Origin: a virus | Taxonomy: Duplodnaviria > Caudoviricetes | IMG/VR virus record: IMGVR_UViG_3300010429_002210 | Location: 2,308 to 66,307 of that record | Length of the DNA stretch: 64,000 nt | Reading direction: 5' to 3' (one strand) | Shown: positions 1-28,002 of the stretch, piece after piece | Layout: every line of letters begins with the position of its first letter | Numbering within the stretch: position 1 is the first letter of the stretch | The notes under the pieces: generated by a model | What the model was told of the DNA's origin: nothing | What the model saw: the letters and a program-made list of their open reading frames with translations, nothing else | Database searches by the model: none | Position numbers and translations under genes: made by a program

Positions 1-1
1 A

Positions 2-19
2 GCTCTTTGAAAATTGAAT
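2..19 (+). promoter_or_regulatory. boxA-like antitermination element
   Basis: GCTCTTTGAAAATTGAAT resembles rrn boxA (TGCTCTTTAACA; GTTCTTTGAAAA type) at the head of a long co-oriented gene array. Confidence 0.4.
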
Positions 20-202
20 GATGGACCCCCAGCAAGCGAAGCCAACGGGCGCGCGAGCAGGAACCGCGAAGCGGGACGGGTGACGGGTTGCAACCCATGA
101 AGGTCAAGCTCATGGGACGCGGATTGAAAAAGACGCGTTAAGCCGGCCGACAGTTACTGCGACGACGGACAGCCTCTGCACGAGCAATCAGCGGACGGTG
201 CC

Positions 203-844
203 GGGGATGCATCATTCAAAAGTTTTAAGCGAGTACGACGGCGCTTGAAGCGCACCACAGCGGATGGTTTTCGGTGCGCCCGTCGAAATGGCGAACCGCT
301 CCGGATTATTCAAATTCACGCTCATCTAAATCATGATGCAACTTGACGATGCATCATGATTTCCCCTCATTCACCAAACGCCCGGGATGGCGGTGTAGCC
401 CCGCTTTTGTCCTCCTCAGGGACGGGAGCGTTCTGGTCTGACGCGGTGGTTGATGCAATCATGCATCCATGTGACCACCGCGAGTGACCGCTGCCGGGTA
501 CGTTCCGGTGGTGGTCGGCCATGCCGCGAGGCAGAGCATGTCAGACCCCGTCGCGGTCAGCGGTGTAAATGGCCCCTGGGTGGCACGCCAGTGTAAAGGT
601 GCCCGACGTTAAAGCACGTCGGTAAGCAAGAACTCGGGGATGCATCATTCATGATGCATCAGTCGCGCCCGTTTAAGCGGCAAAAAGAAGGACCACGACC
701 GTAGGCGTGGAAACGCAGTAAAAAGCGGAAATGATGCATAGCAGTCGGGATGCATCATTTCCGCTTTTTTGTGAAACAATCCAAGCATCATTCAATGAAT
801 GATGTTTCGATGATTTCACAAAAAATCGAGGAGGATGCATCATG
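203..844. repeat. cluster of GATGCATCAT / ATGCAT palindromic motifs
   Basis: ATGCAT at 207, 349, 461, 640, 654, 734, 750 and 835, mostly within GATGCATCAT or ATGATGCAT; further related copies at 785-801, 3554-3576 and 5461-5477. Confidence 0.85.
720..770 (+). terminator. 20-bp perfect inverted repeat followed by T tract
   Basis: AAAAAGCGGAAATGATGCAT (720-739) pairs with ATGCATCATTTCCGCTTTTT (750-769); 10-nt loop; could be a terminator or an operator. Confidence 0.55.
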
Positions 845-1036
845 AATTACTACGAAGCGATTGTAGCGGCAGCGCAGATGACGGGCAATTCGAGAGCGTC
901 TTACAAAACGGTGGCGCCCATCATTATCAAAGCGGCGCAGGCCATGGGTCAAGCGGTTGACGAACGAGCGCTTAAGACCGCCCACCGCGAGTTTAAAGCG
1001 GTGTTTACGAAGAAGCAGTTCTTCAGCAAGAATTAA
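842..1036 (+). CDS. hypothetical early protein (64 aa)
   Basis: GAGGAGG Shine-Dalgarno, first ORF of the array. Confidence 0.7.
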   Translation: MNYYEAIVAAAQMTGNSRASYKTVAPIIIKAAQAMGQAVDERALKTAHREFKAVFTKKQFFSKN

Positions 1037-1052
1037 AAGGAGGTTGCATATC

Positions 1053-1247
1053 ATGTTCGAGAAAGTACATTACAAAACGGACGAAGAAGGCAATGTTTTT
1101 TGCAATAACGTCGAGGAGTTAGCGGAGTTTGCAACGGACGGCATGTGGAAAAGCGTTGAAGATTTGGAAGCGGACACGGGTGTGGGCCGCGAGGAAATGA
1201 TTGGAAAATGGTTCATTATCGTGCACGGTCGCGTGTATCACGTGTAG
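1053..1247 (+). CDS. hypothetical early protein (64 aa)
   Basis: AAGGAGG SD before ATG 1053. Confidence 0.7.
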   Translation: MFEKVHYKTDEEGNVFCNNVEELAEFATDGMWKSVEDLEADTGVGREEMIGKWFIIVHGRVYHV

Positions 1248-1249
1248 CA

Positions 1250-1315
1250 CTCCAAGCAGAGCACGACCGCGAAAGCGGTCGTAATGCTACGGTCCGGTTG
1301 CAAGTCCGGACGGAG
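1250..1315 (+). ncRNA. structured RNA family A copy 1 (twister-sister-like ribozyme candidate)
   Basis: CTCC/GGAG closing stem; AGCA/TGCT; GAGC-AC...GT-AA internal loop; GAAA-capped hairpin; GTCCGG-TTGCAAGT-CCGGAC hairpin; covaries with copies 2 and 3. Confidence 0.75.
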
Positions 1316-1322
1316 GAAAAAC

Positions 1323-1610
1323 ATGGACGCGAAAAAAGGTACGCGGTTTGGGGTGCCCTGCTCTTTCAGAGAGCCAACGTCAAAACATCGGCCCGCCATT
1401 TGGGAGAACATGCTGGGCACAGTTTTTGCAATGAATGACGAGCGCAAGATTAAGTATTTTGATTACGATTACGAAGCGGCAAAAGCATACTCGGGAGTGA
1501 CCGAGGACGAGCGCGATTGCCGGTTGGCAGCATGGAAAGCGGTCGTGTATGACACCGACGGAAACAAGCCGCGCCGCGGTCAGATGGTTCTGTGGTGCAA
1601 GTGCAAGTAG
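1323..1610 (+). CDS. hypothetical early protein
   Basis: GGAGG SD (3' end of RNA motif A1) before ATG 1323. Confidence 0.7.
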   Translation: MDAKKGTRFGVPCSFREPTSKHRPAIWENMLGTVFAMNDERKIKYFDYDYEAAKAYSGVTEDERDCRLAAWKAVVYDTDGNKPRRGQMVLWCKCK

Positions 1611-1678
1611 CTCAGGCAGAGCACAGCGGCAGTCATTGCCGCTGTAATGCCACAGCCCGGTTGCAAGTCCGGGCGAGC
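1610..1678 (+). ncRNA. structured RNA family A copy 2
   Basis: GCTC/GAGC; GGCA/TGCC; ACAGCGGCA/TGCCGCTGT; GCCCGG-TTGCAAGT-CCGGGC. Confidence 0.75.
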
Positions 1679-1686
1679 AAAAAGAG

Positions 1687-1718
1687 TACTTGACAAGAAT
1701 GGGAAATGATGATAGAAC
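1687..1718 (+). promoter_or_regulatory. sigma70-type early promoter
   Basis: TTGACA (1690-1695), 17-bp spacer, TGn-TAGAAC; 28 bp identical to 9723-9750. Confidence 0.75.
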
Positions 1719-1741
1719 ACAAAATACGAGGAGGAGGCATC

Positions 1742-3037
1742 ATGAACGAGCAGCGCACGTTTGGCATCGAGCTGGAATTCAAAAGCTCTGCCAACCATGC
1801 GGACGTTACGGAGCGCATCAACACGGCGCTCAGGAGCGTCGCATGGGAAACGGGTGAGGACCACCATACCGCTTGGAATTATGGTGGTTATCGGCACGAC
1901 ACCAATCAGAGCAACCGCACGACGTGGACGGTCAAAACGGACGCCAGCATCAATAACGATGGCGTCATGGCGAGCCACCCCCATGGCGTGGAAGTTGTCA
2001 GCCCCATCCTGAAAGGTTCCAAGTCGTTCAAGATTATCAAAGCGGTTTGCGAAGCAATCACACCCATCGCGAAAATCACCAGGACTTGTGGTTTTCACGT
2101 TCACCACGGGGTGCTGGCCGCCGAGCTGCGAGACATCGCAAACGCATGGTGGAAAGTTGAACGTCCCATCATGACGTTGGTTCCCAGCAGCCGTCGTGAC
2201 AACCGTTTCTGTCAGACATGGCAGCGGCAGTTTGGAACTCGGTCGGAAAATTACTTCTTCAATCCGTCGGTGGGTGTCGATCGGATCCGCCACACGTTTC
2301 AGATGACCGGTCGGTACTTGACGCTCAATTTCTGCAGCTTCTGGTCTCATGGGACTGTCGAATTCCGCGTTCACAGCGGCACGAACGACGCCGACAAAGT
2401 CATCAACTGGGTGGTTTACACGCAGTCGGTGATCGAGAAAGCGCATGTCATTGCCAGGTCGGAAGGTCAGCCCGCGAACGAGCAGGACATCGAGTGGGCG
2501 CACGAGATCATGATGCAGAAAGAGTACGAGCGCGCGCCGATGACGACCGAGCAGTACACCGAGATGGTGCGCGAAAATCCGCATCGGAACTACTCCTATC
2601 GGTCGGGTCGCAGGAGCGGTAGTCGTAGCCGCCGGGTTAGATACACGGTGGACGAGCGCCGAGTCCGCGATCTCGTCCTCTCCCTCATGAATGGGAGCAT
2701 GACGACCATGCAGATCAACTTCCGGATCCTGCAGCTCTTTCAGGAAAGCACGGCCCCTGGGATTCCCCGAACGGTCGAGGAAGCGCACCAGTGGCATTCT
2801 CGCGCTCAGCGGCAGCTCCAGCGCGAAGGCTACACGCTCCGGGCAGTCAATCGGCGGTTCTGGATTGCCACCCCGCCCGAAGCCCAGCAGGTGGAAACGG
2901 AAACCCACCGGATGGTGCCCAGGACGAGGGAGCGTGAGGTCTATGGCCATGAGCATGTGGAACTCACGGATGAGTCGGTCGAAATGATTGCTCAGGCAAT
3001 CGAATGGGCCCGCGATCGGCAGCGGCAGTTCCGATAA
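1742..3037 (+). CDS. putative amidoligase (COOH-NH2 ligase, Amidoligase_2-type)
   Basis: RTFGIELEF, VKTDASI, GVEVVSPIL, TCGFHVH, RYLTLN and GTVEFR motifs; GATase and GGCT genes nearby. Confidence 0.85.
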   Translation: MNEQRTFGIELEFKSSANHADVTERINTALRSVAWETGEDHHTAWNYGGYRHDTNQSNRTTWTVKTDASINNDGVMASHPHGVEVVSPILKGSKSFKIIKAVCEAITPIAKITRTCGFHVHHGVLAAELRDIANAWWKVERPIMTLVPSSRRDNRFCQTWQRQFGTRSENYFFNPSVGVDRIRHTFQMTGRYLTLNFCSFWSHGTVEFRVHSGTNDADKVINWVVYTQSVIEKAHVIARSEGQPANEQDIEWAHEIMMQKEYERAPMTTEQYTEMVRENPHRNYSYRSGRRSGSRSRRVRYTVDERRVRDLVLSLMNGSMTTMQINFRILQLFQESTAPGIPRTVEEAHQWHSRAQRQLQREGYTLRAVNRRFWIATPPEAQQVETETHRMVPRTREREVYGHEHVELTDESVEMIAQAIEWARDRQRQFR

Positions 3038-3038
3038 A

Positions 3039-3110
3039 GTGCAAGCAGAGCACACCGACCGTAGGAGCGGTCGGTGTAATGCTACTCCCAGGTTGCAAGT
3101 CCTGGGGCAC
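3039..3110 (+). ncRNA. structured RNA family A copy 3
   Basis: GTGC/GCAC; AGCA/TGCT; ACACCGACC/GGTCGGTGT; CCCAGG-TTGCAAGT-CCTGGG. Confidence 0.75.
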
Positions 3111-3120
3111 GGAGGTGACG

Positions 3121-3333
3121 ATGGCAAGGATACTGGTAGACAAGTACGACGGCCACGTTGAGGCGAAGCTCAAGGAGTTTTGTTTTCGTCATCATGTGAA
3201 AATCGAGGAACGCTACACGACGCAAAGCGGCAACGCGAAGGTCGCGACGAAGCGTGCGAAGGTGTCAAAACTCAACGGGGAAATCATGCGGCTTGTCTAC
3301 GACACGTCGCGCAGGGTTTGGTACAACTCATAA
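3121..3333 (+). CDS. hypothetical early protein
   Basis: GGAGGTG SD before ATG 3121. Confidence 0.65.
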   Translation: MARILVDKYDGHVEAKLKEFCFRHHVKIEERYTTQSGNAKVATKRAKVSKLNGEIMRLVYDTSRRVWYNS

Positions 3334-3349
3334 AAGGAGGTAGTGCATC

Positions 3350-3547
3350 ATGGCAGTCAATACAGCGTACAGTCGGAACCGGGACTGGTCGGTTGGTGCC
3401 ACTGTGAAGGTCGGGTTCCTCACGCTGATCGTCACGGGGTGCAAAGCGGTAAAGGACGGGATGCCTGACATCTACACGCTGAAAAGCGTGGATGGAAGGA
3501 AGCTCTACGAGTTCATTCCCCACAACGGACTGCGACGGATCGGATAA
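3350..3547 (+). CDS. hypothetical early protein
   Basis: AAGGAGG SD. Confidence 0.7.
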   Translation: MAVNTAYSRNRDWSVGATVKVGFLTLIVTGCKAVKDGMPDIYTLKSVDGRKLYEFIPHNGLRRIG

Positions 3548-3607
3548 CCCTGTGGGATGCATCATTCATGCATCCCGGCGCTATACAAGATAAGGGTTGA
3601 AAAGCGC
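3547..3607 (+). ncRNA. structured RNA family B copy 1 (pseudoknot)
   Basis: ACCCT/AGGGT stem, 9-bp hairpin, GCGCT/AGCGC pseudoknot stem. Confidence 0.7.
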
Positions 3608-3632
3608 GAACTTCAAGTAACAGGAGGATGTC

Positions 3633-3809
3633 ATGGCAAAGACGGTTAGAATTCAATTCTTAGAGCCGCGTCGGCCCGGTCGGCTGGTGCGGAAAGCCAG
3701 AATCATTCGGACGCAGAAGCAGGACCAGCGCCTCTGGGTTGAAGAGGTCCAGGAGATCCGTGGGCGCAAGTTCAAGATCATGGTCCCCAATCCCCAGCTC
3801 GGAGTGTAA
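3633..3809 (+). CDS. hypothetical protein (58 aa, MAKTVRIQF...)
   Basis: read manually; CAGGAGG SD; below ORF-track length cut-off. Confidence 0.6.
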   Translation: MAKTVRIQFLEPRRPGRLVRKARIIRTQKQDQRLWVEEVQEIRGRKFKIMVPNPQLGV

Positions 3810-3823
3810 AGGAGGAGAGTGTC

Positions 3824-4894
3824 ATGTGCGGCATCTATGGGTACGTTGGCAAGCCATTCAACAAGGAGAAACTGTGCATGCTCATGAAGAACCTGGCCAT
3901 CGCAACAGAGGTCAGGGGCACTGACAGCACAGGGGTGGTTGCCACCACACGGCGGAAGGCTTACTTCTCCAAAGCCGTGGAGAAAGCGTCCAAGTTCGTC
4001 CAGCACGGTGACTTCGAGAAAGCCATCGTGACGCGTGGTTGCCGGTACTTCCTGGGCCATAACAGGGCGGCATCCTGTGGCGGAGTGACGGTTCCGAACG
4101 CGCACCCGTTCAAGGGTGAAAAGTTCTTCCTGGTGCACAACGGTACGTCGCGTGTTGCGAATCAGATGTGCGACGAGCGTGGTCTGGTCCGCGAGGGTCA
4201 GACAGACAGCGAAGCCATCCTGAAACTGATCGAGGCCGACGGGCTGAAAAGCAGTGAAGATCTGCTCAACAAGCTCACGGATTTTAGCATCGTTCTGCTC
4301 GACTACAAGAAGCGGAACGGCGCGCTGTATTTCTTCCGAAACCACATGAAACCCATGTACGTGGCGGATCTCAGGAAGTGGTTTGGTGTCAGGATTTTCG
4401 CGAGCACCAAGGAGATCCTGGAGCGTGCCATCCTCCGCACCTTCAACCTCAAGGTGGAGCAGGTTCAGGAAATTCTGTCCACCGGATGGAACACTCGGCC
4501 GGGTTGCATCTACCGAGTGACCGCGAAAGACGGCGAGTTCCAGAACATCGGAAAGTTCCTGTGGGAGGAGACGGAGGCACACCTGAGGCAAAGGTTGGCC
4601 GCTCAGCAGGAACGCGATGAAGAGCGCCAGCAGCGCCGCTCAGACCGCGCTGTCATGAAAGAGACAAAGCGCATCCTGACCAGGGACAGTCAGGGAGCAC
4701 TGCCGTACAGGACAGAGCAGAAACCGTCGGGGATTGAAGTTGGGACGGTTAAGACGACCGATTCCAAAATCGACGCATGGCGGAAGTGGGAGAAGGAGCA
4801 CCTGGGAAACTGGATGGAGGACGACCTCTACATCCATCGGGTGGCCAGCAGGGACTACATGCGCTCCATGAAGAAAAGGGGGAAGCTCCACTAA
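3824..4894 (+). CDS. class II glutamine amidotransferase (Ntn hydrolase)
   Basis: N-terminal MCGIYG, RGTDSTG, GHNRAAS, NAHPF, HNGT, TDSE. Confidence 0.9.
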   Translation: MCGIYGYVGKPFNKEKLCMLMKNLAIATEVRGTDSTGVVATTRRKAYFSKAVEKASKFVQHGDFEKAIVTRGCRYFLGHNRAASCGGVTVPNAHPFKGEKFFLVHNGTSRVANQMCDERGLVREGQTDSEAILKLIEADGLKSSEDLLNKLTDFSIVLLDYKKRNGALYFFRNHMKPMYVADLRKWFGVRIFASTKEILERAILRTFNLKVEQVQEILSTGWNTRPGCIYRVTAKDGEFQNIGKFLWEETEAHLRQRLAAQQERDEERQQRRSDRAVMKETKRILTRDSQGALPYRTEQKPSGIEVGTVKTTDSKIDAWRKWEKEHLGNWMEDDLYIHRVASRDYMRSMKKRGKLH

Positions 4895-5025
4895 TGCGAA
4901 AAGACATCAAAGAAGTGCTCGACTTTGTCGGGTACGTTGTGGGTGGCATCCTGTTCTTTGTCGGGCTTGTAATGCTGCTCGGGTTCGGTGACATAGTGCT
5001 GGAATTGGTTCGTAATGCATTCTAA
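4894..5025 (+). CDS. small membrane protein
   Basis: overlapping TAATG junction; hydrophobic helix. Confidence 0.55.
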   Translation: MRKDIKEVLDFVGYVVGGILFFVGLVMLLGFGDIVLELVRNAF

Positions 5026-5037
5026 AGGAGGAGAACT

Positions 5038-5439
5038 ATGGGAATGGTATTCGTGTATGGGTCGTTGAAAACTGGTGGTTACAATAGCTGTCTGATGGTG
5101 GGTTCCGAGTTCATCGGTCGAGCCCACATGTGCAGGAAGTACTTGATGGTGAGCCTGGGACCGTTTCCGGGTCTGCTCTACAATCACGACGCGAAAGTGC
5201 CCGCAAGCGGTGAGGTCTACAAGGTCTCCAAAAAGACCTTGAAGCGGTTGGATCAGCTCGAGGGCCACCCCAACTTCTACCGCAGGAAGCGCGTCTGGGT
5301 CAACCTGGGTGGTGGGAAGAAAGTTCGCTGCTGGGTGTACTTTTACAACCCGCCGATCCACCCCCAAACGGTGAAGGACAGGGCAGTTGCCAGCGGGCAC
5401 TGGCCTTGCACACCAGTTCGTGCAGCCTCTACCATGTAG
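5038..5439 (+). CDS. gamma-glutamylcyclotransferase (GGCT/AIG2-like)
   Basis: VFVYGSLK, GEVY and LDQLEGHPNFYRR motifs. Confidence 0.9.
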   Translation: MGMVFVYGSLKTGGYNSCLMVGSEFIGRAHMCRKYLMVSLGPFPGLLYNHDAKVPASGEVYKVSKKTLKRLDQLEGHPNFYRRKRVWVNLGGGKKVRCWVYFYNPPIHPQTVKDRAVASGHWPCTPVRAASTM

Positions 5440-5445
5440 ATGTAG

Positions 5446-5523
5446 CGTTCTGCGGGTATGGCATCATTCAATGAATGGTGCCATGCACTGGAGCATGTTA
5501 CAAAAAGGAACGGAGGTGATCCA
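5446..5523 (+). ncRNA. structured RNA family B divergent copy
   Basis: CGTTCT/(A)GGAACG stem, GCG, long hairpin, TGGAGCAT/GTGATCCA (one mismatch), ACAAAAAGG linker; same order of elements as the other B copies. Confidence 0.45.
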
Positions 5524-5793
5524 ATGCGACTCACAGTAACGACGGAGCAGGGTCACGTTTTCAGGGGAGACAATGCGAAGCAAATTGTCTACCGCATGAT
5601 GAAGCGAGACTTTATGGTGACAACCAAAACAGACTACATGGCGGAGGTCAGGCAACGCGTCAAGATCATCTACGGATGGGAGATCGGGATTGCCAATCAC
5701 GAGGAGTTCCTCAGATTGCCAATCACGAGGAGTTCCTCAACGATCTGGAAAAGTACGGGCTGATAACTGTTTCAGTAAATGAGGAGGTGAAGT
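5524..5793 (+). pseudogene. hypothetical gene frameshifted by a 26-bp tandem duplication
   Basis: GATTGCCAATCACGAGGAGTTCCTCA repeated at 5688-5713 and 5714-5739; removing one copy restores ...EEFLNDLEKYGLITVSVNEEVK* ending just before the next gene. Confidence 0.6.
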
Positions 5794-5796
5794 GAA

Positions 5797-6243
5797 ATGC
5801 CAGAGACGTTACAACTGTCGCTCTCCGCTCCCAGAGCGGGGGAAGAGGTGGTCGCGGCCGTTTACGAACTGACGGGCCAGCGTCCGAAGTCCAAGAAAGA
5901 GAAGTACATCTTCGTCCACGCGACAGAAGATCCCGGCGTGGTGGTGGGGTGCGTGGCCGTGAAGAAGCTCAACTGGGCCATGTCGGAAATCCGTCACTTG
6001 TACGTCCAGGAAGCGTACCGAACTCGGGGCATTGGCAGGAAACTCATCCAAGAGGCACTTGCCCATGTCCAGACCCCGATGGTGTGCTCCACCGTTGACC
6101 TTCGGAACCAGGCAAGCCTCAAGGCGTTCTACGCACATATGTTCATTCCGAGGGAACTATTCCCGAACTACGCCACGGGGCATACTGTCCAACTCCTCAT
6201 CAAAGTCATGCCACCGCCCCGTCGGGCGTCCATGCTCCAGTAA
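5797..6243 (+). CDS. GNAT family acetyltransferase
   Basis: EIRHLYVQEAYRTRGIGRKLI acetyl-CoA binding motif A. Confidence 0.85.
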   Translation: MPETLQLSLSAPRAGEEVVAAVYELTGQRPKSKKEKYIFVHATEDPGVVVGCVAVKKLNWAMSEIRHLYVQEAYRTRGIGRKLIQEALAHVQTPMVCSTVDLRNQASLKAFYAHMFIPRELFPNYATGHTVQLLIKVMPPPRRASMLQ

Positions 6244-6264
6244 CCAAGAAAGGGGGACGAGCAC

Positions 6265-6552
6265 ATGTTCAGCATTATCCACCTCAGAGAAGCGTTCAGT
6301 ATGGAAACACGTGCCCTTGTCTACCATGAGCAGGGAGTGCCCGAGATGGTTCCGGGCTACCCCGAGGGCCCAGCGATGTCCTTCTTCCTACTTGACCTGA
6401 AAACGAAGGCGGTCAAGGAACTTACGAAGGACGAACTCCGAGCCATTTACAAGTACGTCCAGTACAAACGTGACCGAATCTTCGTCTGGCAGTATTTGAA
6501 AGGTGACCCGTACGAGGGCGCCGAAGCGGCAATGGGGGCTAACATCCGCTAA
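6265..6552 (+). CDS. hypothetical protein
   Basis: purine-rich SD, co-oriented with the array. Confidence 0.65.
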   Translation: MFSIIHLREAFSMETRALVYHEQGVPEMVPGYPEGPAMSFFLLDLKTKAVKELTKDELRAIYKYVQYKRDRIFVWQYLKGDPYEGAEAAMGANIR

Positions 6553-6556
6553 TACG

Positions 6557-6613
6557 ACCCTGTGGGGACGCGAAAGCGTCCCCGGCATCTAAAACAAAAG
6601 GGTGGAAGGATGC
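6557..6613 (+). ncRNA. structured RNA family B copy 2
   Basis: ACCCT/AGGGT; GGGGACGC-GAAA-GCGTCCCC; compensatory pseudoknot GCATCT/GGATGC. Confidence 0.7.
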
Positions 6614-6643
6614 GAAACTTGAACAGAAAGGAGGTGATGCTTC

Positions 6644-6781
6644 ATGGTGAAAACCATCACTGTCGCGGTGGTCATCGCAGTCGTTGCGTACCACATCCTG
6701 GCGGGCTTGGCGGAACGTTGTTTACTCAAGTACAAGGTGTACGAAGTTCGCGATCGTATCGAACTGATCGTGGGAAAGTGA
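6644..6781 (+). CDS. small membrane protein (45 aa)
   Basis: AAGGAGGTG SD; hydrophobic N-terminus; read manually. Confidence 0.55.
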   Translation: MVKTITVAVVIAVVAYHILAGLAERCLLKYKVYEVRDRIELIVGK

Positions 6782-6862
6782 GAAGAACATGTTCAGGCTT
6801 TTCATCAACTTACTGTTTTGGGGAGTGCCGATCCTGTGGTACCTCTCACGGGTGCAGGTGAT

Positions 6863-7348
6863 ATGATGGAACAGGAACTTCGGTCCATCTTACGGCGCGT
6901 CAAGAACAGGGTGTTCGAAGAACGGTACTTTGACGAAGAGGTTGCTTACACGATTCCGAGGATCGAGGCAACAGCAAAGGACGTCGACCTGACTTGCACC
7001 GAGGTGTTGGAGCATGTTTCGGAGTACATTGAAAGACTCCCAAACGCGCACCCTATTCAGGCGCTCTGGACACTGTCGGAGATCACGGCCCACATGTCAT
7101 GGGAACCAACCGTGAAACCAATCAGGAAACCGATCCAAAAGCCCCCACAGGAGACGTACAGGTCCGAAACGGTATCATTACTCAGAAGGAGGCAACAAGA
7201 TGGCACGACAGGTGCAGTTGAGAACGTACTCCGAAGAAGAGGTCAGCAAGAACATCCGCAAGAACATCGAGACGCTGAAACGCGACCTGGACATCCAAGA
7301 AAAAGTACTCCAGGTTCTTTCGGACTTCGAGAACAAAAGCATCACTAA
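6863..7348 (+). CDS. hypothetical protein
   Basis: ORF; 3' end overlaps the next gene by about 150 nt, so the true end is uncertain. Confidence 0.5.
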   Translation: MMEQELRSILRRVKNRVFEERYFDEEVAYTIPRIEATAKDVDLTCTEVLEHVSEYIERLPNAHPIQALWTLSEITAHMSWEPTVKPIRKPIQKPPQETYRSETVSLLRRRQQDGTTGAVENVLRRRGQQEHPQEHRDAETRPGHPRKSTPGSFGLREQKHH

Positions 7349-7715
7349 GCGGATGGCTACCGCGTTCACGAATCGGGTGACCAACGTGTCGGCAACGGTG
7401 GAACACAACTACGGTCTCTGGCACTTCAACGTCTACACGAAGAACCCCGAGAATCCCTGTATGCGTGACCGTCGGCAGTTCTTCCTGGGTCACTACAACG
7501 ACGTAAAGTATCTCACCACCGAACGACTTCAATCACTTCGCAACGCTTTTGTCAGAGACAAGGGGCGGCTGGCCCACTACGAGGCCGCTGTTGCAAAAGT
7601 ACCTGAGTGGGTGGCAAAGTACAACGAAGCCGTCCTGCACATGCAAGCGGTGTATGACAGCATGCGCGAGGCGGAGACGGAGTACAGTCTGCCCATTGGT
7701 TACCTCTTTGACTAG
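7200..7715 (+). CDS. hypothetical protein
   Basis: AAGGAGG SD; 171 aa. Confidence 0.75.
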   Translation: MARQVQLRTYSEEEVSKNIRKNIETLKRDLDIQEKVLQVLSDFENKSITKRMATAFTNRVTNVSATVEHNYGLWHFNVYTKNPENPCMRDRRQFFLGHYNDVKYLTTERLQSLRNAFVRDKGRLAHYEAAVAKVPEWVAKYNEAVLHMQAVYDSMREAETEYSLPIGYLFD

Positions 7716-7723
7716 GAGGTAGC

Positions 7724-8380
7724 ATGCGAACCCTCAAAGATGAACTCAAGAAGAAGTTGAAGGGCAAAGGATTCAGGATGGAGCCCGAAGCACCATCGGG
7801 CCCACCCTTGATTCCTGGCGAGGTTGAACTTGAAGCGCGAATCGTCGTTAACGGAATCGGGAAAGCACTTTACAAACCACCCCGAAAGTCTCGTCCCCAT
7901 CGGCATCGGTATGGACGAGTGCAGATCACGGAGGTCAAGAAGCACATGGAAAAGAGACCTTTCAGCAAGGAGTCGATCCAGTACTCGATCTTGGACATTG
8001 CACTGCGCGAAACCAAACCGTTCACTGTTCCGAACATGATGAAGTGGTTACCTGTCGGCACGAAGAAGGCCTCGATCATGGGTGCGCTGGTGAAGTTCTG
8101 CCACGCGGGTGTCATGACAGTTTCCAAGGAGTTCATCGACGGCAACAAGCAGTACAGCATCTCTGACGTTGACAGGCGCCTGGGTACAGACGCCCTGTAC
8201 GTCAAGTTCCTGGAACATGTCAACGGTAAGCGTGTTGCAAGGAAGAAAGTGGCAGTCGGTGAGAGTCCTGTCAAGAGTGCTATCAAGAGTGCTCAGACCG
8301 GCTACGTCATTCCCCCAGTCATCAACGTCGTGTTCAGCGGCAAGATCGAGCACATCATAACCATCAAGATCGGAAAGTGA
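7724..8380 (+). CDS. hypothetical protein, possible winged-helix DNA-binding domain
   Basis: 218 aa basic protein; central helix-helix-beta-hairpin-like segment; fold call is a guess. Confidence 0.6.
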   Translation: MRTLKDELKKKLKGKGFRMEPEAPSGPPLIPGEVELEARIVVNGIGKALYKPPRKSRPHRHRYGRVQITEVKKHMEKRPFSKESIQYSILDIALRETKPFTVPNMMKWLPVGTKKASIMGALVKFCHAGVMTVSKEFIDGNKQYSISDVDRRLGTDALYVKFLEHVNGKRVARKKVAVGESPVKSAIKSAQTGYVIPPVINVVFSGKIEHIITIKIGK

Positions 8381-8388
8381 GGTGAACT

Positions 8389-8595
8389 ATGGCCGAGGGG
8401 AAGAGAGTAGCAATCTGGGTAAAGTGCCATGGTGAGGCGCACTCCAACCCGTATATCGATCACTGTGGCATTTGCATGCCACACTGGGGGGAGTTCCCCA
8501 CCTGCCCGCACTGCAGGAGTGCACAGATCAGGGAGTGGCCCTCAGGACGGGGCAAGTGCAGGCGGTGCGGGAAGATCATGAAGATGCGGGGGTAG
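8389..8595 (+). CDS. Cys/His-rich zinc-finger protein
   Basis: CxxC motifs (CGIC, CPHC, CRRC). Confidence 0.65.
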   Translation: MAEGKRVAIWVKCHGEAHSNPYIDHCGICMPHWGEFPTCPHCRSAQIREWPSGRGKCRRCGKIMKMRG

Positions 8596-8599
8596 GCAC

Positions 8600-8743
8600 A
8601 TGAAGAAAAAGATCGTAGCGTTCCGAGGAATCACCATGTACGAGATGCAGATCGGCCGAGTCATCATCCAACTTGTCCGTTGGATGTATTGGAACACGAG
8701 GAACTGGCCGTTCTTGCGTATCCGAACGACACCTTACAGATGA
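8600..8743 (+). CDS. hypothetical protein (47 aa)
   Basis: read manually; its stop codon overlaps RNA motif B3. Confidence 0.5.
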   Translation: MKKKIVAFRGITMYEMQIGRVIIQLVRWMYWNTRNWPFLRIRTTPYR

Positions 8744-8801
8744 CCCTGTGAGTGGCCGAAAAGGCCACTCGGCGCTATACAAGATAAGGGTTGAAAAGCG
8801 C
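8743..8801 (+). ncRNA. structured RNA family B copy 3
   Basis: ACCCT/AGGGT; GAGTGGCC-GAAAA-GGCCACTC; GCGCT/AGCGC; 34 bp identical to 3576-3609. Confidence 0.7.
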
Positions 8802-8816
8802 GAGGAGGTGATAAGA

Positions 8817-9005
8817 ATGGAGGCAGCAGAGGTGAAAATCGCACTGGTGATCGTCCGAGAAATCATGTTCGCAAAGCGTGCTGAACTGGATGCTCGTCGC
8901 GGTTACTGCCTTAACACGCACATGCAGTTAGAGTGCGACGTGCTCTACAAGCAACTGGACGCTTTGAAAAAGAGAGAGGCGGAGTTAGTCAGTTCACTGT
9001 CCTAA
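8817..9005 (+). CDS. hypothetical protein
   Basis: GAGGAGGTG SD before ATG 8817. Confidence 0.65.
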   Translation: MEAAEVKIALVIVREIMFAKRAELDARRGYCLNTHMQLECDVLYKQLDALKKREAELVSSLS

Positions 9006-9149
9006 ATCCAACCTTGGGAGGGGAAGGAATGAAAGAAGGAGAGAGCAGTGCGTCTGTCGGTATCTACAACGCGTTAAAGATCAGCGTCCCGTTCTGGATT
9101 ATCGTTATCACTCTTTTCATCTACTGTTGCCGATAGGGGGCGGCTAAAG

Positions 9150-9338
9150 ATGGTGTTGGTACTCAACGAGAAACAGATGAAGTTTGTCCTTGATTGCATC
9201 GAGCACGTGGGTGGTCATTATGGTTTTTACGTTGAGGGAGACCGCGAGATGGCCGAGGAGATCACCACGCGAATCCATCAACTACTCGACGACGAAAAGA
9301 AACCGGGCTGGAAAGTAAAAGACAATCCCGAGGACTGA
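9150..9338 (+). CDS. hypothetical protein
   Basis: ORF in array. Confidence 0.6.
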   Translation: MVLVLNEKQMKFVLDCIEHVGGHYGFYVEGDREMAEEITTRIHQLLDDEKKPGWKVKDNPED

Positions 9339-9352
9339 GGAGGTGACGAATC

Positions 9353-9691
9353 ATGACGACTTTCAAGATTCCTCATGCTTGCCTTTTGAACGGACGGAAG
9401 GAAGACGTACTTGTCTACGTTGACAGTTCGTCTGTCCGTTGGGGTAACGATGGCATCGGCGCTTACGAGTACTGGGGCGCCAAGGGGTTTGATAGAGGAA
9501 CGGACTACATCGAGGAGTTCGCGGTGGAGCGGGCGTTCGAACTGGACACTGCGAAGGAGTACTCGAATCGTTTCCGTGAGGCAATCCAATACGTCCTGCA
9601 GGATGACCATGAGTTCTTAGACAAGTTAGCCGGTCTGTTCCTCACCTGGGCAGCGGAAATGAAGGCCGATGCTCTCTGCCAGGAAGATTGA
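9353..9691 (+). CDS. hypothetical protein
   Basis: GAGGAGGTG SD. Confidence 0.7.
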   Translation: MTTFKIPHACLLNGRKEDVLVYVDSSSVRWGNDGIGAYEYWGAKGFDRGTDYIEEFAVERAFELDTAKEYSNRFREAIQYVLQDDHEFLDKLAGLFLTWAAEMKADALCQED

Positions 9692-9722
9692 GGACGTAAA
9701 ATTTCGAGGGTACTAATTTTTT

Positions 9723-9754
9723 TACTTGACAAGAATGGGAAATGATGATACACC
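9723..9754 (+). promoter_or_regulatory. sigma70-type early promoter (second copy)
   Basis: TTGACA (9726-9731), 17-bp spacer, TGn-TACACC; 28 bp identical to 1687-1714. Confidence 0.7.
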
Positions 9755-9779
9755 ACAAAATAAGGAGGAGGTGATAAGA

Positions 9780-10001
9780 ATGGCAGGTCCCACGCGCGAA
9801 GACATCAAGAAGATCGACGACGCCCGTTCGGAGTTCATCGGTCGAGCGGCAGCGGTTATCTTTGAGAAGCACACGCCGAGCGACAAGAAGATTGCCATCC
9901 TCAAGGAGTACTACAAGACGTACGCCCAAACGAGGAAGGACATCTATGAGGCCACTGGATGGGGGCCGTTGGCGCATGACATGTACCTTACGGAGGAGTG
10001 A
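9780..10001 (+). CDS. hypothetical protein
   Basis: AGGAGGAGGTG SD before ATG 9780. Confidence 0.7.
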   Translation: MAGPTREDIKKIDDARSEFIGRAAAVIFEKHTPSDKKIAILKEYYKTYAQTRKDIYEATGWGPLAHDMYLTEE

Positions 10002-26672: not shown

Positions 26673-27404
26673 ATGACGGACAGAACCAAGCTTCTCGCGG
26701 CAATCAAGGCTGTCAACGACAGCGGACTCGCAACCAAGAAGGCCCGAACGGTGGGCAAGGTGGAATTGCTGGTCGAAGACTTCCTCTCCACCGTCGAAAC
26801 GGTCCCCCAGGACAAGGAGAACCAGCTCCCGGCCGAGGTCGTCGATCTGTTCAACACGCTCATCGACAAGCTGGCCGAGCAGAGCGTCCAGCCGGCATCG
26901 GAGGCACCGACACCCGCACCGGTTCAGGAACCCGTCGTCACGGCAGCGTCCGAAGCCGCAGCACCTGCAGCTCCCACCAAGGCGAGAAAAGCTGCGAAGC
27001 CCAAACGCGCGACGGAGGCACAGGCAGAAGCACCGGCAGCACCTGTCACGGAGATGCCCGCTCCGGCCCCCGCAGCGCAGGCGGAACCCGCAGTAGCCGA
27101 CACGGCCGACATCGACACCGGGGTGGGCCTCCACAAGCTCATCGACAAGCTGACCGCCCGAGGCGACAATCGCACGACATACGTGGTGGACAAGATGCTC
27201 GTCGCGGGTGCCTCCAAGGAGGAGATGGCAGACGTCGCGAAGCGCACCGCCATTGCCCTCGGCCAGGTCCAGTACCAGCGCGGTGTGGGTGACATCACGG
27301 TCCACATCAATTCCAGGACCAAGAGCGGCTGGGTCATCGGTGAGACTCCCGATGGCAAGTTCAAGATCATCGGGGTTCGGAAGGGAGCCGAGGTTTCGGA
27401 ATGA
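26673..27404 (+). CDS. two-domain protein with Ala/Pro-rich linker
   Basis: AAGGAGG SD; about 70-aa A/P/E-rich spacer between globular ends. Confidence 0.75.
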   Translation: MTDRTKLLAAIKAVNDSGLATKKARTVGKVELLVEDFLSTVETVPQDKENQLPAEVVDLFNTLIDKLAEQSVQPASEAPTPAPVQEPVVTAASEAAAPAAPTKARKAAKPKRATEAQAEAPAAPVTEMPAPAPAAQAEPAVADTADIDTGVGLHKLIDKLTARGDNRTTYVVDKMLVAGASKEEMADVAKRTAIALGQVQYQRGVGDITVHINSRTKSGWVIGETPDGKFKIIGVRKGAEVSE

Positions 27405-28002
27405 ACGAAGAGCGAACCAGACAACTGATTCACTCTATGCTGACTGAGGGGTTGGGGTTGGATCTTTCCGACCCAACCTCACTGATACCCCCAACCTCAC
27501 TGATACCCCCCGGCGCATCGCGAAGATGTACTGCCGGGAGATCTTTCAGAACGTCGGCAAAGAGTTTGACCCAACGGAGTTGCGCGTCTTTCCCAATGAG
27601 CGCAATTATGACCAAATCATCATGTCGGACGCCATCTTTTTCGCGTCCACTTGCTCCCATCATTTCTTGCCATTCACGGGACGCGCGTGGATTCTCTACA
27701 TCCCGAGCATGAACATGGTGGGGCTTTCAAAACTCACCCGCCTGGTGGAGTTCTACTCACGACGACCCCAGTTGCAAGAAGCGCTCTGTCACGACATCAT
27801 CAACACGTTCGACAGGTACCTGGTTCCGAAGGGTGCCATGGTCGTTCTCCGTGCGGAGCACGGCTGTATGAAATGCCGTGGGGTCTGTCAGCACAACGGG
27901 GCAGGGATGATTACTTCGGCCATTTCGGGGTGCTTCACGGAGGACTCAATCAAACGCGAAGGCCTTGACCTGATAAAGATTTCTCTCTTAGACCGTGGGT
28001 AA
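27401..28002 (+). pseudogene. folE: GTP cyclohydrolase I, frameshifted as assembled
   Basis: CSHHFLPF, VGLSKL.R, RRPQLQE and EHGCMKCRGV in the downstream frame; the N-terminus is in another frame because of an 18-bp tandem duplication (27473-27508) plus one missing C. Confidence 0.85.

Follow-up and report, generated by a model that had tools for sequence, protein, structure and literature searches.

Predicted type-P5 twister ribozymes and an uncatalogued pseudoknot RNA family in the long gene gaps of a phage small-gene block

The question raised by this locus is what the stable RNA structures between the small genes of a phage are, and whether they could divide a polycistronic message into shorter units. 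The DNA stretch analyzed, called the window throughout, is 64 kb long and corresponds to bases 2308–66307 of a 66.3-kb IMG/VR virus record with a completeness rating of 71%. On its plus strand, 25 ATG-initiated open reading frames (ORFs) were placed between positions 842 and 9780, nearly all of them preceded by a GGAGG-type ribosome site. The lengths of the gaps at the 24 junctions were bimodal: seven gaps measured 73–131 nt and one measured 88 nt, and the rest were ≤33 nt or overlapping. The long gaps are listed below.

1248–1322, 1611–1741, 3038–3120, 3548–3632, 5440–5523, 6553–6643, and 8744–8816: seven long gaps with one stable RNA structure each
9692–9779: eighth long gap, 88 nt, containing a promoter-like repeat

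An earlier note on this DNA had described seven elements of two folds in the gene gaps. The description held for six of them, namely three elements of a family A and three of a family B, whereas the seventh, a long hairpin designated hairpin H, has another fold. All six lie on the coding strand between a stop codon and the next Shine-Dalgarno (SD) sequence. The same note had placed family A within the first 3.1 kb and family B after it, and this division was borne out: neither family was found elsewhere in the 64 kb by scans with Rfam or with two covariance models of family B, R1 (built without the copy B2) and R2 (a broader model from eight sequences). Judging from the sequence evidence presented here, it is fairly probable that the polycistronic block is cut at the three family A junctions, with family B serving in the same boundary role.

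Family A is a group of type-P5 twister ribozymes, with membership assigned by homology. The three elements, all on the plus strand, matched Rfam model RF02684 (Twister-P5, clan CL00120) at 1255–1309, 1615–1672, and 3044–3104 with scores of 56.7, 58.2, and 50.0 bits, respectively, against a gathering cut-off of 37.6, and model positions 1–58 of 58 were covered. There was no other Rfam ribozyme match in the 64 kb, even at E ≤ 0.5. With the flanking stems added, the elements are as follows.

1250–1315, plus strand: twister A1 including the P5 closing stem; RF02684, 56.7 bits, E = 3.9e-9; P5 CUCC/GGAG
1610–1678, plus strand: twister A2; RF02684, 58.2 bits, E = 1.6e-9; P5 GCUC/GAGC
3039–3110, plus strand: twister A3; RF02684, 50.0 bits, E = 2.1e-7; P5 GUGC/GCAC

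The flanks thus form three distinct 4-bp P5 stems, and stems P1, P2, P4, and P5 covary across A1–A3. The sequence of P1 is wholly different in the three elements yet paired throughout. A1 and A3 have AGCA/UGCU as P2, against GGCA/UGCC in A2; for P4, A1 and A2 share CCGG/CCGG, and A3 has CAGG/CCUG. The minimum free energy (MFE) fold of A1 reproduced P5, P2, P1, and P4 (z −4.4). The core blocks (GCAGAG, UAAUGC with the predicted cut after its first U, and the CAAG loop) were identical to the Rfam consensus in the cmscan alignments. Loop 4 departs from the consensus (UCcC to UUGC and GC to GU), with matching changes in its partners (GgG to GCA and GC to AC). Both tertiary pseudoknots, paired as we presume them to be in this class and read by eye, stay complementary (GCA/UGC and AC/GU), which is a weaker point. 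Family A therefore shares the full model with RF02684, including all stems and the core, and it also occupies the usual habitat of the class, between phage genes on the coding strand. No essential difference was seen: the loop-4 and pseudoknot nucleotides are off consensus but compensated, and the P5 of A1 doubles as an SD mask.

The cleavage sites were placed at the class site, the U-A step ahead of AAUGC, and are predicted between U1282 and A1283 in A1, U1645 and A1646 in A2, and U3077 and A3078 in A3. Self-cleavage of A1–A3 is likely, because about 94% of predicted natural twisters cleaved in vitro in a large survey (PMC11662667).

The relation of the twisters to translation differed from element to element. 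It had been claimed for A1 that the SD sequence is the 3′ strand of the closing stem, and this proved correct: GGAG at 1312–1315, a part of the SD sequence of the ORF starting at 1323, pairs with CUCC at 1250–1253, and the stem is present in the MFE fold. The 3′ cleavage product of A1 alone was no more stable than shuffled sequence. The broader suggestion that cleavage unmasks SD sequences is supported for A1 and not for the other two. In A3, the SD sequence GGAGG (3111–3115) begins one base past P5 and is outside the stem, and A2, which overlaps the TAG stop codon at 1608–1610, is followed by a promoter-like repeat.

Family B is a pseudoknot RNA of about 60 nt with three copies in the window. 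It opens with N-CCCU and GUG, continues with a variable hairpin (P1) whose closing pairs are a conserved U-G and a G-C, and ends in a 5–6-bp stem (P2) enclosing UA.ACAAG..AAGGGU.GAA. The copies are as follows.

3547–3607, plus strand: copy B1; R1 85.1 bits, R2 73 bits, fold z −3.2
6557–6613, plus strand: copy B2, the most divergent in the window; R1 49.8 bits, R2 69.6 bits, fold z −3.9
8743–8801, plus strand: copy B3; R1 88.6 bits, fold z −3.9; SD sequence GAGGAGG from 8802

In B1, the parts are ACCCU at 3547–3551, whose first A is the last base of a TAA stop codon, P1 at 3553–3577, P2 at 3578–3582/3603–3607, and the pseudoknot partner AGGGU at 3593–3597. B2 has GCAUC/GAUGC as P2 and GAAA as the P1 loop. 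The 3′ domain of B3 (8770–8803) is 100% identical to that of B1 (3576–3609), an exact 34-nt repeat, and the P1 sequences of the two copies differ. A simple family B pattern gave three matches in the window, exactly these copies, against 0.01 expected. Model R1 recovered B2, which was absent from its seed, and nothing else in the record, and R2 with filters off found the same three copies, with no other window sequence below E = 2. Family B drew no match from Rfam 15 (4227 models), whether the query was the 111 nt around B1 (E ≤ 10), a 12-kb stretch (E ≤ 5), or the full 64 kb (E ≤ 0.5).

Alignment of eight family B sequences, which was fitted to the model and is limited to that number, had 99.3% of cells in standard pairs and changes on both sides in 11 of 18 pairs. 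The pairing statistic was reached by 0 of 500 shuffles, and no slid register came near it. P2 occurs as GCGCU/AGCGC, GCAUC/GAUGC, GCGAC/GUCGC, and CCCGU/ACGGG. The proposed pseudoknot ACCCU/AGGGU draws support from its outer pair, for which four copies have A-U, three have U-A, and one has C-G; its remaining four pairs are invariant. Also invariant are the unpaired G8 and the ACAA and GAA tracts. Conservation at this level is more suggestive of a tertiary fold than of a passive hairpin. From the pairing and covariation data, family B is a real, structured, and previously uncatalogued RNA. The conserved U-G pair identifies the plus-strand RNA as the molecule under selection, and at the level of sequence the strand-specific G-U pairs, together with the covariation, demonstrate that the family acts in cis on mRNA. 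A DNA-level site was rejected, since on the opposite strand the conserved U-G pair would read as a mismatch of A with C.

The search for family B beyond the window used six DNA patterns over IMG/VR, JGI metagenomes, and GTDB genomes. Clear new members were found in an 11.8-kb viral contig, L093 (three copies), and a 3.2-kb metagenome contig, L135 (one copy), and a third contig, L136, carries one weak copy without P2; all other pattern matches in these collections failed the structure test. The three contigs share no proteins with the window, bar one weak match in L135, L093 and L135 being fragments. In all three, family B lies 0–13 nt past a stop codon and 10–45 nt ahead of an SD sequence and start codon. 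A role as a stop-codon readthrough or frameshift signal was rejected, given these varying distances from the stop and the read-through frames, which end at unrelated places. The block with three family B copies in gene gaps of L093 (6551–10560) holds an AAA ATPase gene, a DUF2997 gene, and ORFs of no assigned function. Among GenBank phages, neither megablast with the 9-kb region nor blastn with B3 as the query found a similar sequence.

The presence of family B in otherwise unrelated phages would also suit another idea in the earlier note, that the elements are recombination joints for swapping early-gene cassettes between phages. The exact 34-nt 3′ domain of B1 and B3 would fit it as well, as would the exact repetition of a ribosome-binding block and of a promoter-like block. 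These repeats are equally well explained by functional constraint or internal duplication, however, and, to judge from the compensatory changes and the conserved G-U pairs, it is RNA structure and not DNA identity that is under selection. Further, the closest relatives of the window are a near-identical contig, L129, with an amidoligase 100% identical to that of the window, and amidoligase homologues that are all ≤36% identical; 80 other viral loci encoding amidoligase homologues carry no family B. We regard a recombination role as very improbable.

As for the mechanism of family B, self-cleavage is in our assessment the single most likely one, though less likely than not, followed by a fold that blocks or directs host RNases and then by a protein- or ribosome-binding regulator. 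Stated in full, the tentative proposal is that family B may be a new class of small self-cleaving ribozyme that phages use interchangeably with twister to segment polycistronic messages. The clustering of ribozymes with each other and with phage genes is what led to the discovery of pistol, hatchet, and twister-sister (PMC4604425, PMC10085705).

None of the known small ribozyme classes considered accounts for family B, which gave no Rfam match to any of them. Its strand order is pseudoknot strand, hairpin, P2 5′ strand, pseudoknot partner, and P2 3′ strand. HDV-like ribozymes (named after hepatitis delta virus) form a nested double pseudoknot of P1, P1.1, P2, P3, and P4, and twister-sister forms a multi-stem junction; the strand order of family B is unlike either. 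Pistol (RF02679) resembles family B in being a small pseudoknotted RNA near phage genes and other ribozymes, with one pseudoknot strand inside the P2-enclosed region. Pistol, however, has three stems and a pseudoknot that joins the P1 loop to the P2–P3 junction (PMC4604425), whereas family B has two stems, no P3, and a pseudoknot strand 5′ of P1; a permuted form of pistol was rejected as well. Hatchet (RF02678) has four stems, P1–P4, with cleavage at the base of P1 (PMC6154101), against only P1, P2, and one pseudoknot in family B. The hammerhead core consists of CUGANGA, GAAA, and UH joining three stems (PMC10085705); in family B, only a GAAA-like tract (UGAAA/GGAAG) is present, and no stem-adjacent conserved CUGANGA was found in the eight copies, permuted forms included.

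The same structural features bear on readings in which family B does not cleave. In one of these, a compact pseudoknot shields the message at the gene boundary against a 5′–3′ or 3′–5′ exonuclease or scanning RNase E, or insulates the translation of neighboring cistrons, and would thereby be comparable in function to viral exonuclease-resistant RNAs. The pairing of ACCCU inside the P2-closed loop, which gives a knotted and mechanically stable fold, is in favor of such a shield, as are the position of family B at the start of each downstream leader with the SD sequence never hidden and its presence without known ribozymes in L093 and L135. The roughly 16 invariant positions, many of them unpaired, across unrelated phages are nevertheless more than a simple roadblock usually needs, and we know of no bacterial exonuclease-resistant RNA of this form. 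We consider a shielding or insulating role rather doubtful.

Family B could instead be a binding site for a protein, the ribosome, or the polymerase, for instance a translational repressor site, an antiterminator RNA like HK022 put, or a standby site. Such a site would explain the conserved single-stranded purine-rich tracts ACAAG, AAGGG, and GGAAG just upstream of the SD sequence and the GNRA-like P1 loops in four of the seven copies, and several copies per operon would suit a processive factor. No protein is common to the window and L093, however (L093 and L135 being fragments), no downstream terminators that would need antitermination were predicted, and family B lies far from promoters. 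A binding site is unlikely on this evidence. A small-ligand riboswitch, for example for a 7-deazaguanine precursor, whose pathway the phage encodes, is scarcely to be expected. The unpaired nucleotides of family B are highly conserved, and a pseudoknot with an A-rich tract is, as we take it, loosely reminiscent of preQ1-type aptamers. But no Rfam riboswitch matched at E ≤ 10, the genes that follow the three copies are small and unrelated, the SD sequence is never sequestered, no terminator follows, and L093 and L135 carry no genes of related metabolism.

To place the elements within transcription units, we considered terminators, promoters, and repeats in the region. Terminator-like and sigma-70-like sites showed no excess over shuffled controls. 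No convincing internal terminators were predicted, and therefore the block is probably read as a long polycistronic RNA. Two kinds of repeat were found.

1687–1726 and 9723–9762, plus strand: promoter-like 40-nt repeat with TTGACA; copies 95% identical
8802–8820 and 9765–9783, plus strand: 19-nt ribosome-binding block GAGGAGGTGATAAGAATGG; exact repeat

The first 28 nt of the promoter-like repeat occur exactly twice in the 64 kb, each copy about 15 nt before an SD sequence. The copy at 1687–1726 probably starts a second transcription unit, this putative promoter being absent from the sigma-70 scan scores, and the copies at 1687 and 9723 may represent a phage-specific promoter bounding an 8-kb transcription unit. 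The exact block GAGGAGGTGATAAGAATGG confirms that an SD block is common to about 8804 and 9767, as had been pointed out before.

Taken together, the twister data are consistent with the following model. Transcription of the block would likely start in the 840-nt leader and at the 1687 repeat. During transcription, the twisters would cut themselves at 1282/1283, 1645/1646, and 3077/3078, each cut leaving a 2′,3′-cyclic phosphate on the upstream message and a 5′-OH on the downstream message. The cut in A1 would part the SD strand of P5 from its partner and so free the ribosome site of the next gene, and that in A2 would set the 3′ end of the first unit, just ahead of the promoter-like repeat. 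The first unit (842–1610) would in this way be cut twice, once ahead of its last gene and once at its end, and the cut in A3 would separate the amidoligase message from the genes behind it. Family B, which lies in the same slot between stop codon and SD sequence as the twisters, would most likely play the same boundary role. The claim that the phage cuts its transcript without host nucleases is accordingly well founded at the three twister junctions, which belong to a proven self-cleaving class; for family B, position and conservation are what speak for it.

Several points weigh against this model. Both co-transcription and cleavage are deduced from the DNA sequence, and the repeats at 1687 and 9723 mean that the region is not one transcript. 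Family B has no feature indicative of a cleavage site. Family B never masks the downstream SD sequence, and therefore the unmasking logic of A1 does not extend to it. No recognized ribozyme was found near family B in L093 or L135, so that the link between family B and ribozymes comes from a single phage, that of the window. In the RAGATH series, most candidate motifs near ribozyme-associated genes reportedly proved not to be ribozymes.

The reason that bacteria and phages carry clustered self-cleaving ribozymes is an open question (PMC6765202). Perreault et al. (2011) proposed that clustered hammerheads flanking prophage genes process long phage transcripts (PMC3088659), and later reviews extended the processing idea to twisters, with the function still called elusive in 2019 (PMC6765202). 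The window shares with these clusters the presence of several ribozymes within a few kb that flank genes or short gene blocks, with gene-length mRNAs as the supposed outcome (PMC3088659, PMC6765202). It differs in that the twister operon also holds an undescribed RNA family and a long hairpin, each in one of the few long gaps. The twister layout is thus already known in phages and the idea of transcript processing is mostly published, and the new part is family B.

In the early mRNA of T7, intercistronic hairpins are processed by host RNase III. The likeness to the window lies in a polycistronic transcript split at structured intercistronic sites and in the size of hairpin H, which resembles that of an RNase III substrate; in contrast to the T7 sites, twisters need no host enzyme, and the use of RNase III at hairpin H is a guess. 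The operon is a compact natural test case, with three twisters, three family B copies, and one long hairpin all in the same type of slot. For family B, three unrelated phage contigs contribute covariation support, a rarity among orphan motifs, and the family is a small and cheap candidate for a self-cleavage assay. If it does cleave itself, it would constitute a new ribozyme class; if it does not, it points to a new kind of message boundary element.

The seventh element was the following.

5441–5502, plus strand: hairpin H, a long imperfect hairpin; −38.2 kcal/mol, z −5.6

Hairpin H fills the gap between a gamma-glutamyl cyclotransferase (GGACT) gene and the ORF at 5524. A fourth copy of family B was considered here and rejected: there was no R1 or R2 match at E ≤ 5 with filters off, and the putative partner strand lies outside the P2-like hairpin. 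The A-rich tail UUACAAAAAGGAAC of hairpin H bears a loose likeness to B2, though the two differ in topology. Hairpin H is a third kind of element, and its use as a host RNase III site, by analogy with T7, is speculative. Nothing resembling the elements was found in the remaining 54 kb of the window.

The tip of hairpin H repeats a 20-nt piece of the leader (785–804), the leader palindrome motif. The non-coding leader of about 840 nt holds, at 200–845, 12 of the 20 GATGCATCAT-type sites of the window, where 4 would be expected by chance in the whole window, and many of those in the leader are arranged as palindromes or long hairpins. The P1 hairpin of B1 is itself made of one GATGCATCAT-type copy (3556), and the tip of hairpin H consists of a related piece. 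The GATGCATCAT-type sites may be operators for a phage regulator.

The rightward block, at 842–9700, is densely filled with about 24 small genes, among them the following with assigned functions.

1742–3037, plus strand: amidoligase (PF12224)
3824–4894, plus strand: class-II glutamine amidotransferase
5038–5439, plus strand: gamma-glutamyl cyclotransferase (GGACT)
5797–6243, plus strand: GNAT acetyltransferase

This set presumably resembles the phage gene sets for peptide or amine ligation known from comparative genomics. Its members (1742–6243) are set apart by twister A3 and element B1. An amidoligase homologue in an unrelated viral contig, L164, is followed about 175 nt downstream by a type II hammerhead (1048–1115, 53.7 bits); such a hammerhead next to the gene was found in 1 of the 15 amidoligase loci checked.

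The near-identical contig L129, which comes from another sample, reaches 8.3 kb further upstream than the window. At 1–4900, it carries the genes for the terminase large subunit and the portal on the strand opposite to the rightward small-gene block, from which they diverge, and there is about 1.27 kb of non-coding DNA ahead of the first gene (window position 842). A direction away from the packaging genes fits an early region, without amounting to proof, and the "early/host takeover" label given in the earlier note is derived from gene order.

Two gene calls in the block deserve mention. The ORF at 5524–5763 contains an exact 26-nt tandem duplication (5688–5739) that causes a frame shift; were the second copy absent, the ORF would extend to a TGA abutting the next start codon, an arrangement usual here. 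Either a recent mutation or an artefact of assembly may account for the duplication. The ORFs at 6866–7348 and 7200–7715 overlap by 149 nt in different frames, and one start or stop call may be wrong. Farther along the window, at 27400–27530, a structured 121-nt gap (z about −3) adjoins the 7-deazaguanine gene cluster and holds the roughly 20-nt sequence CCAACCUCACUGAUACCCCC twice in tandem.

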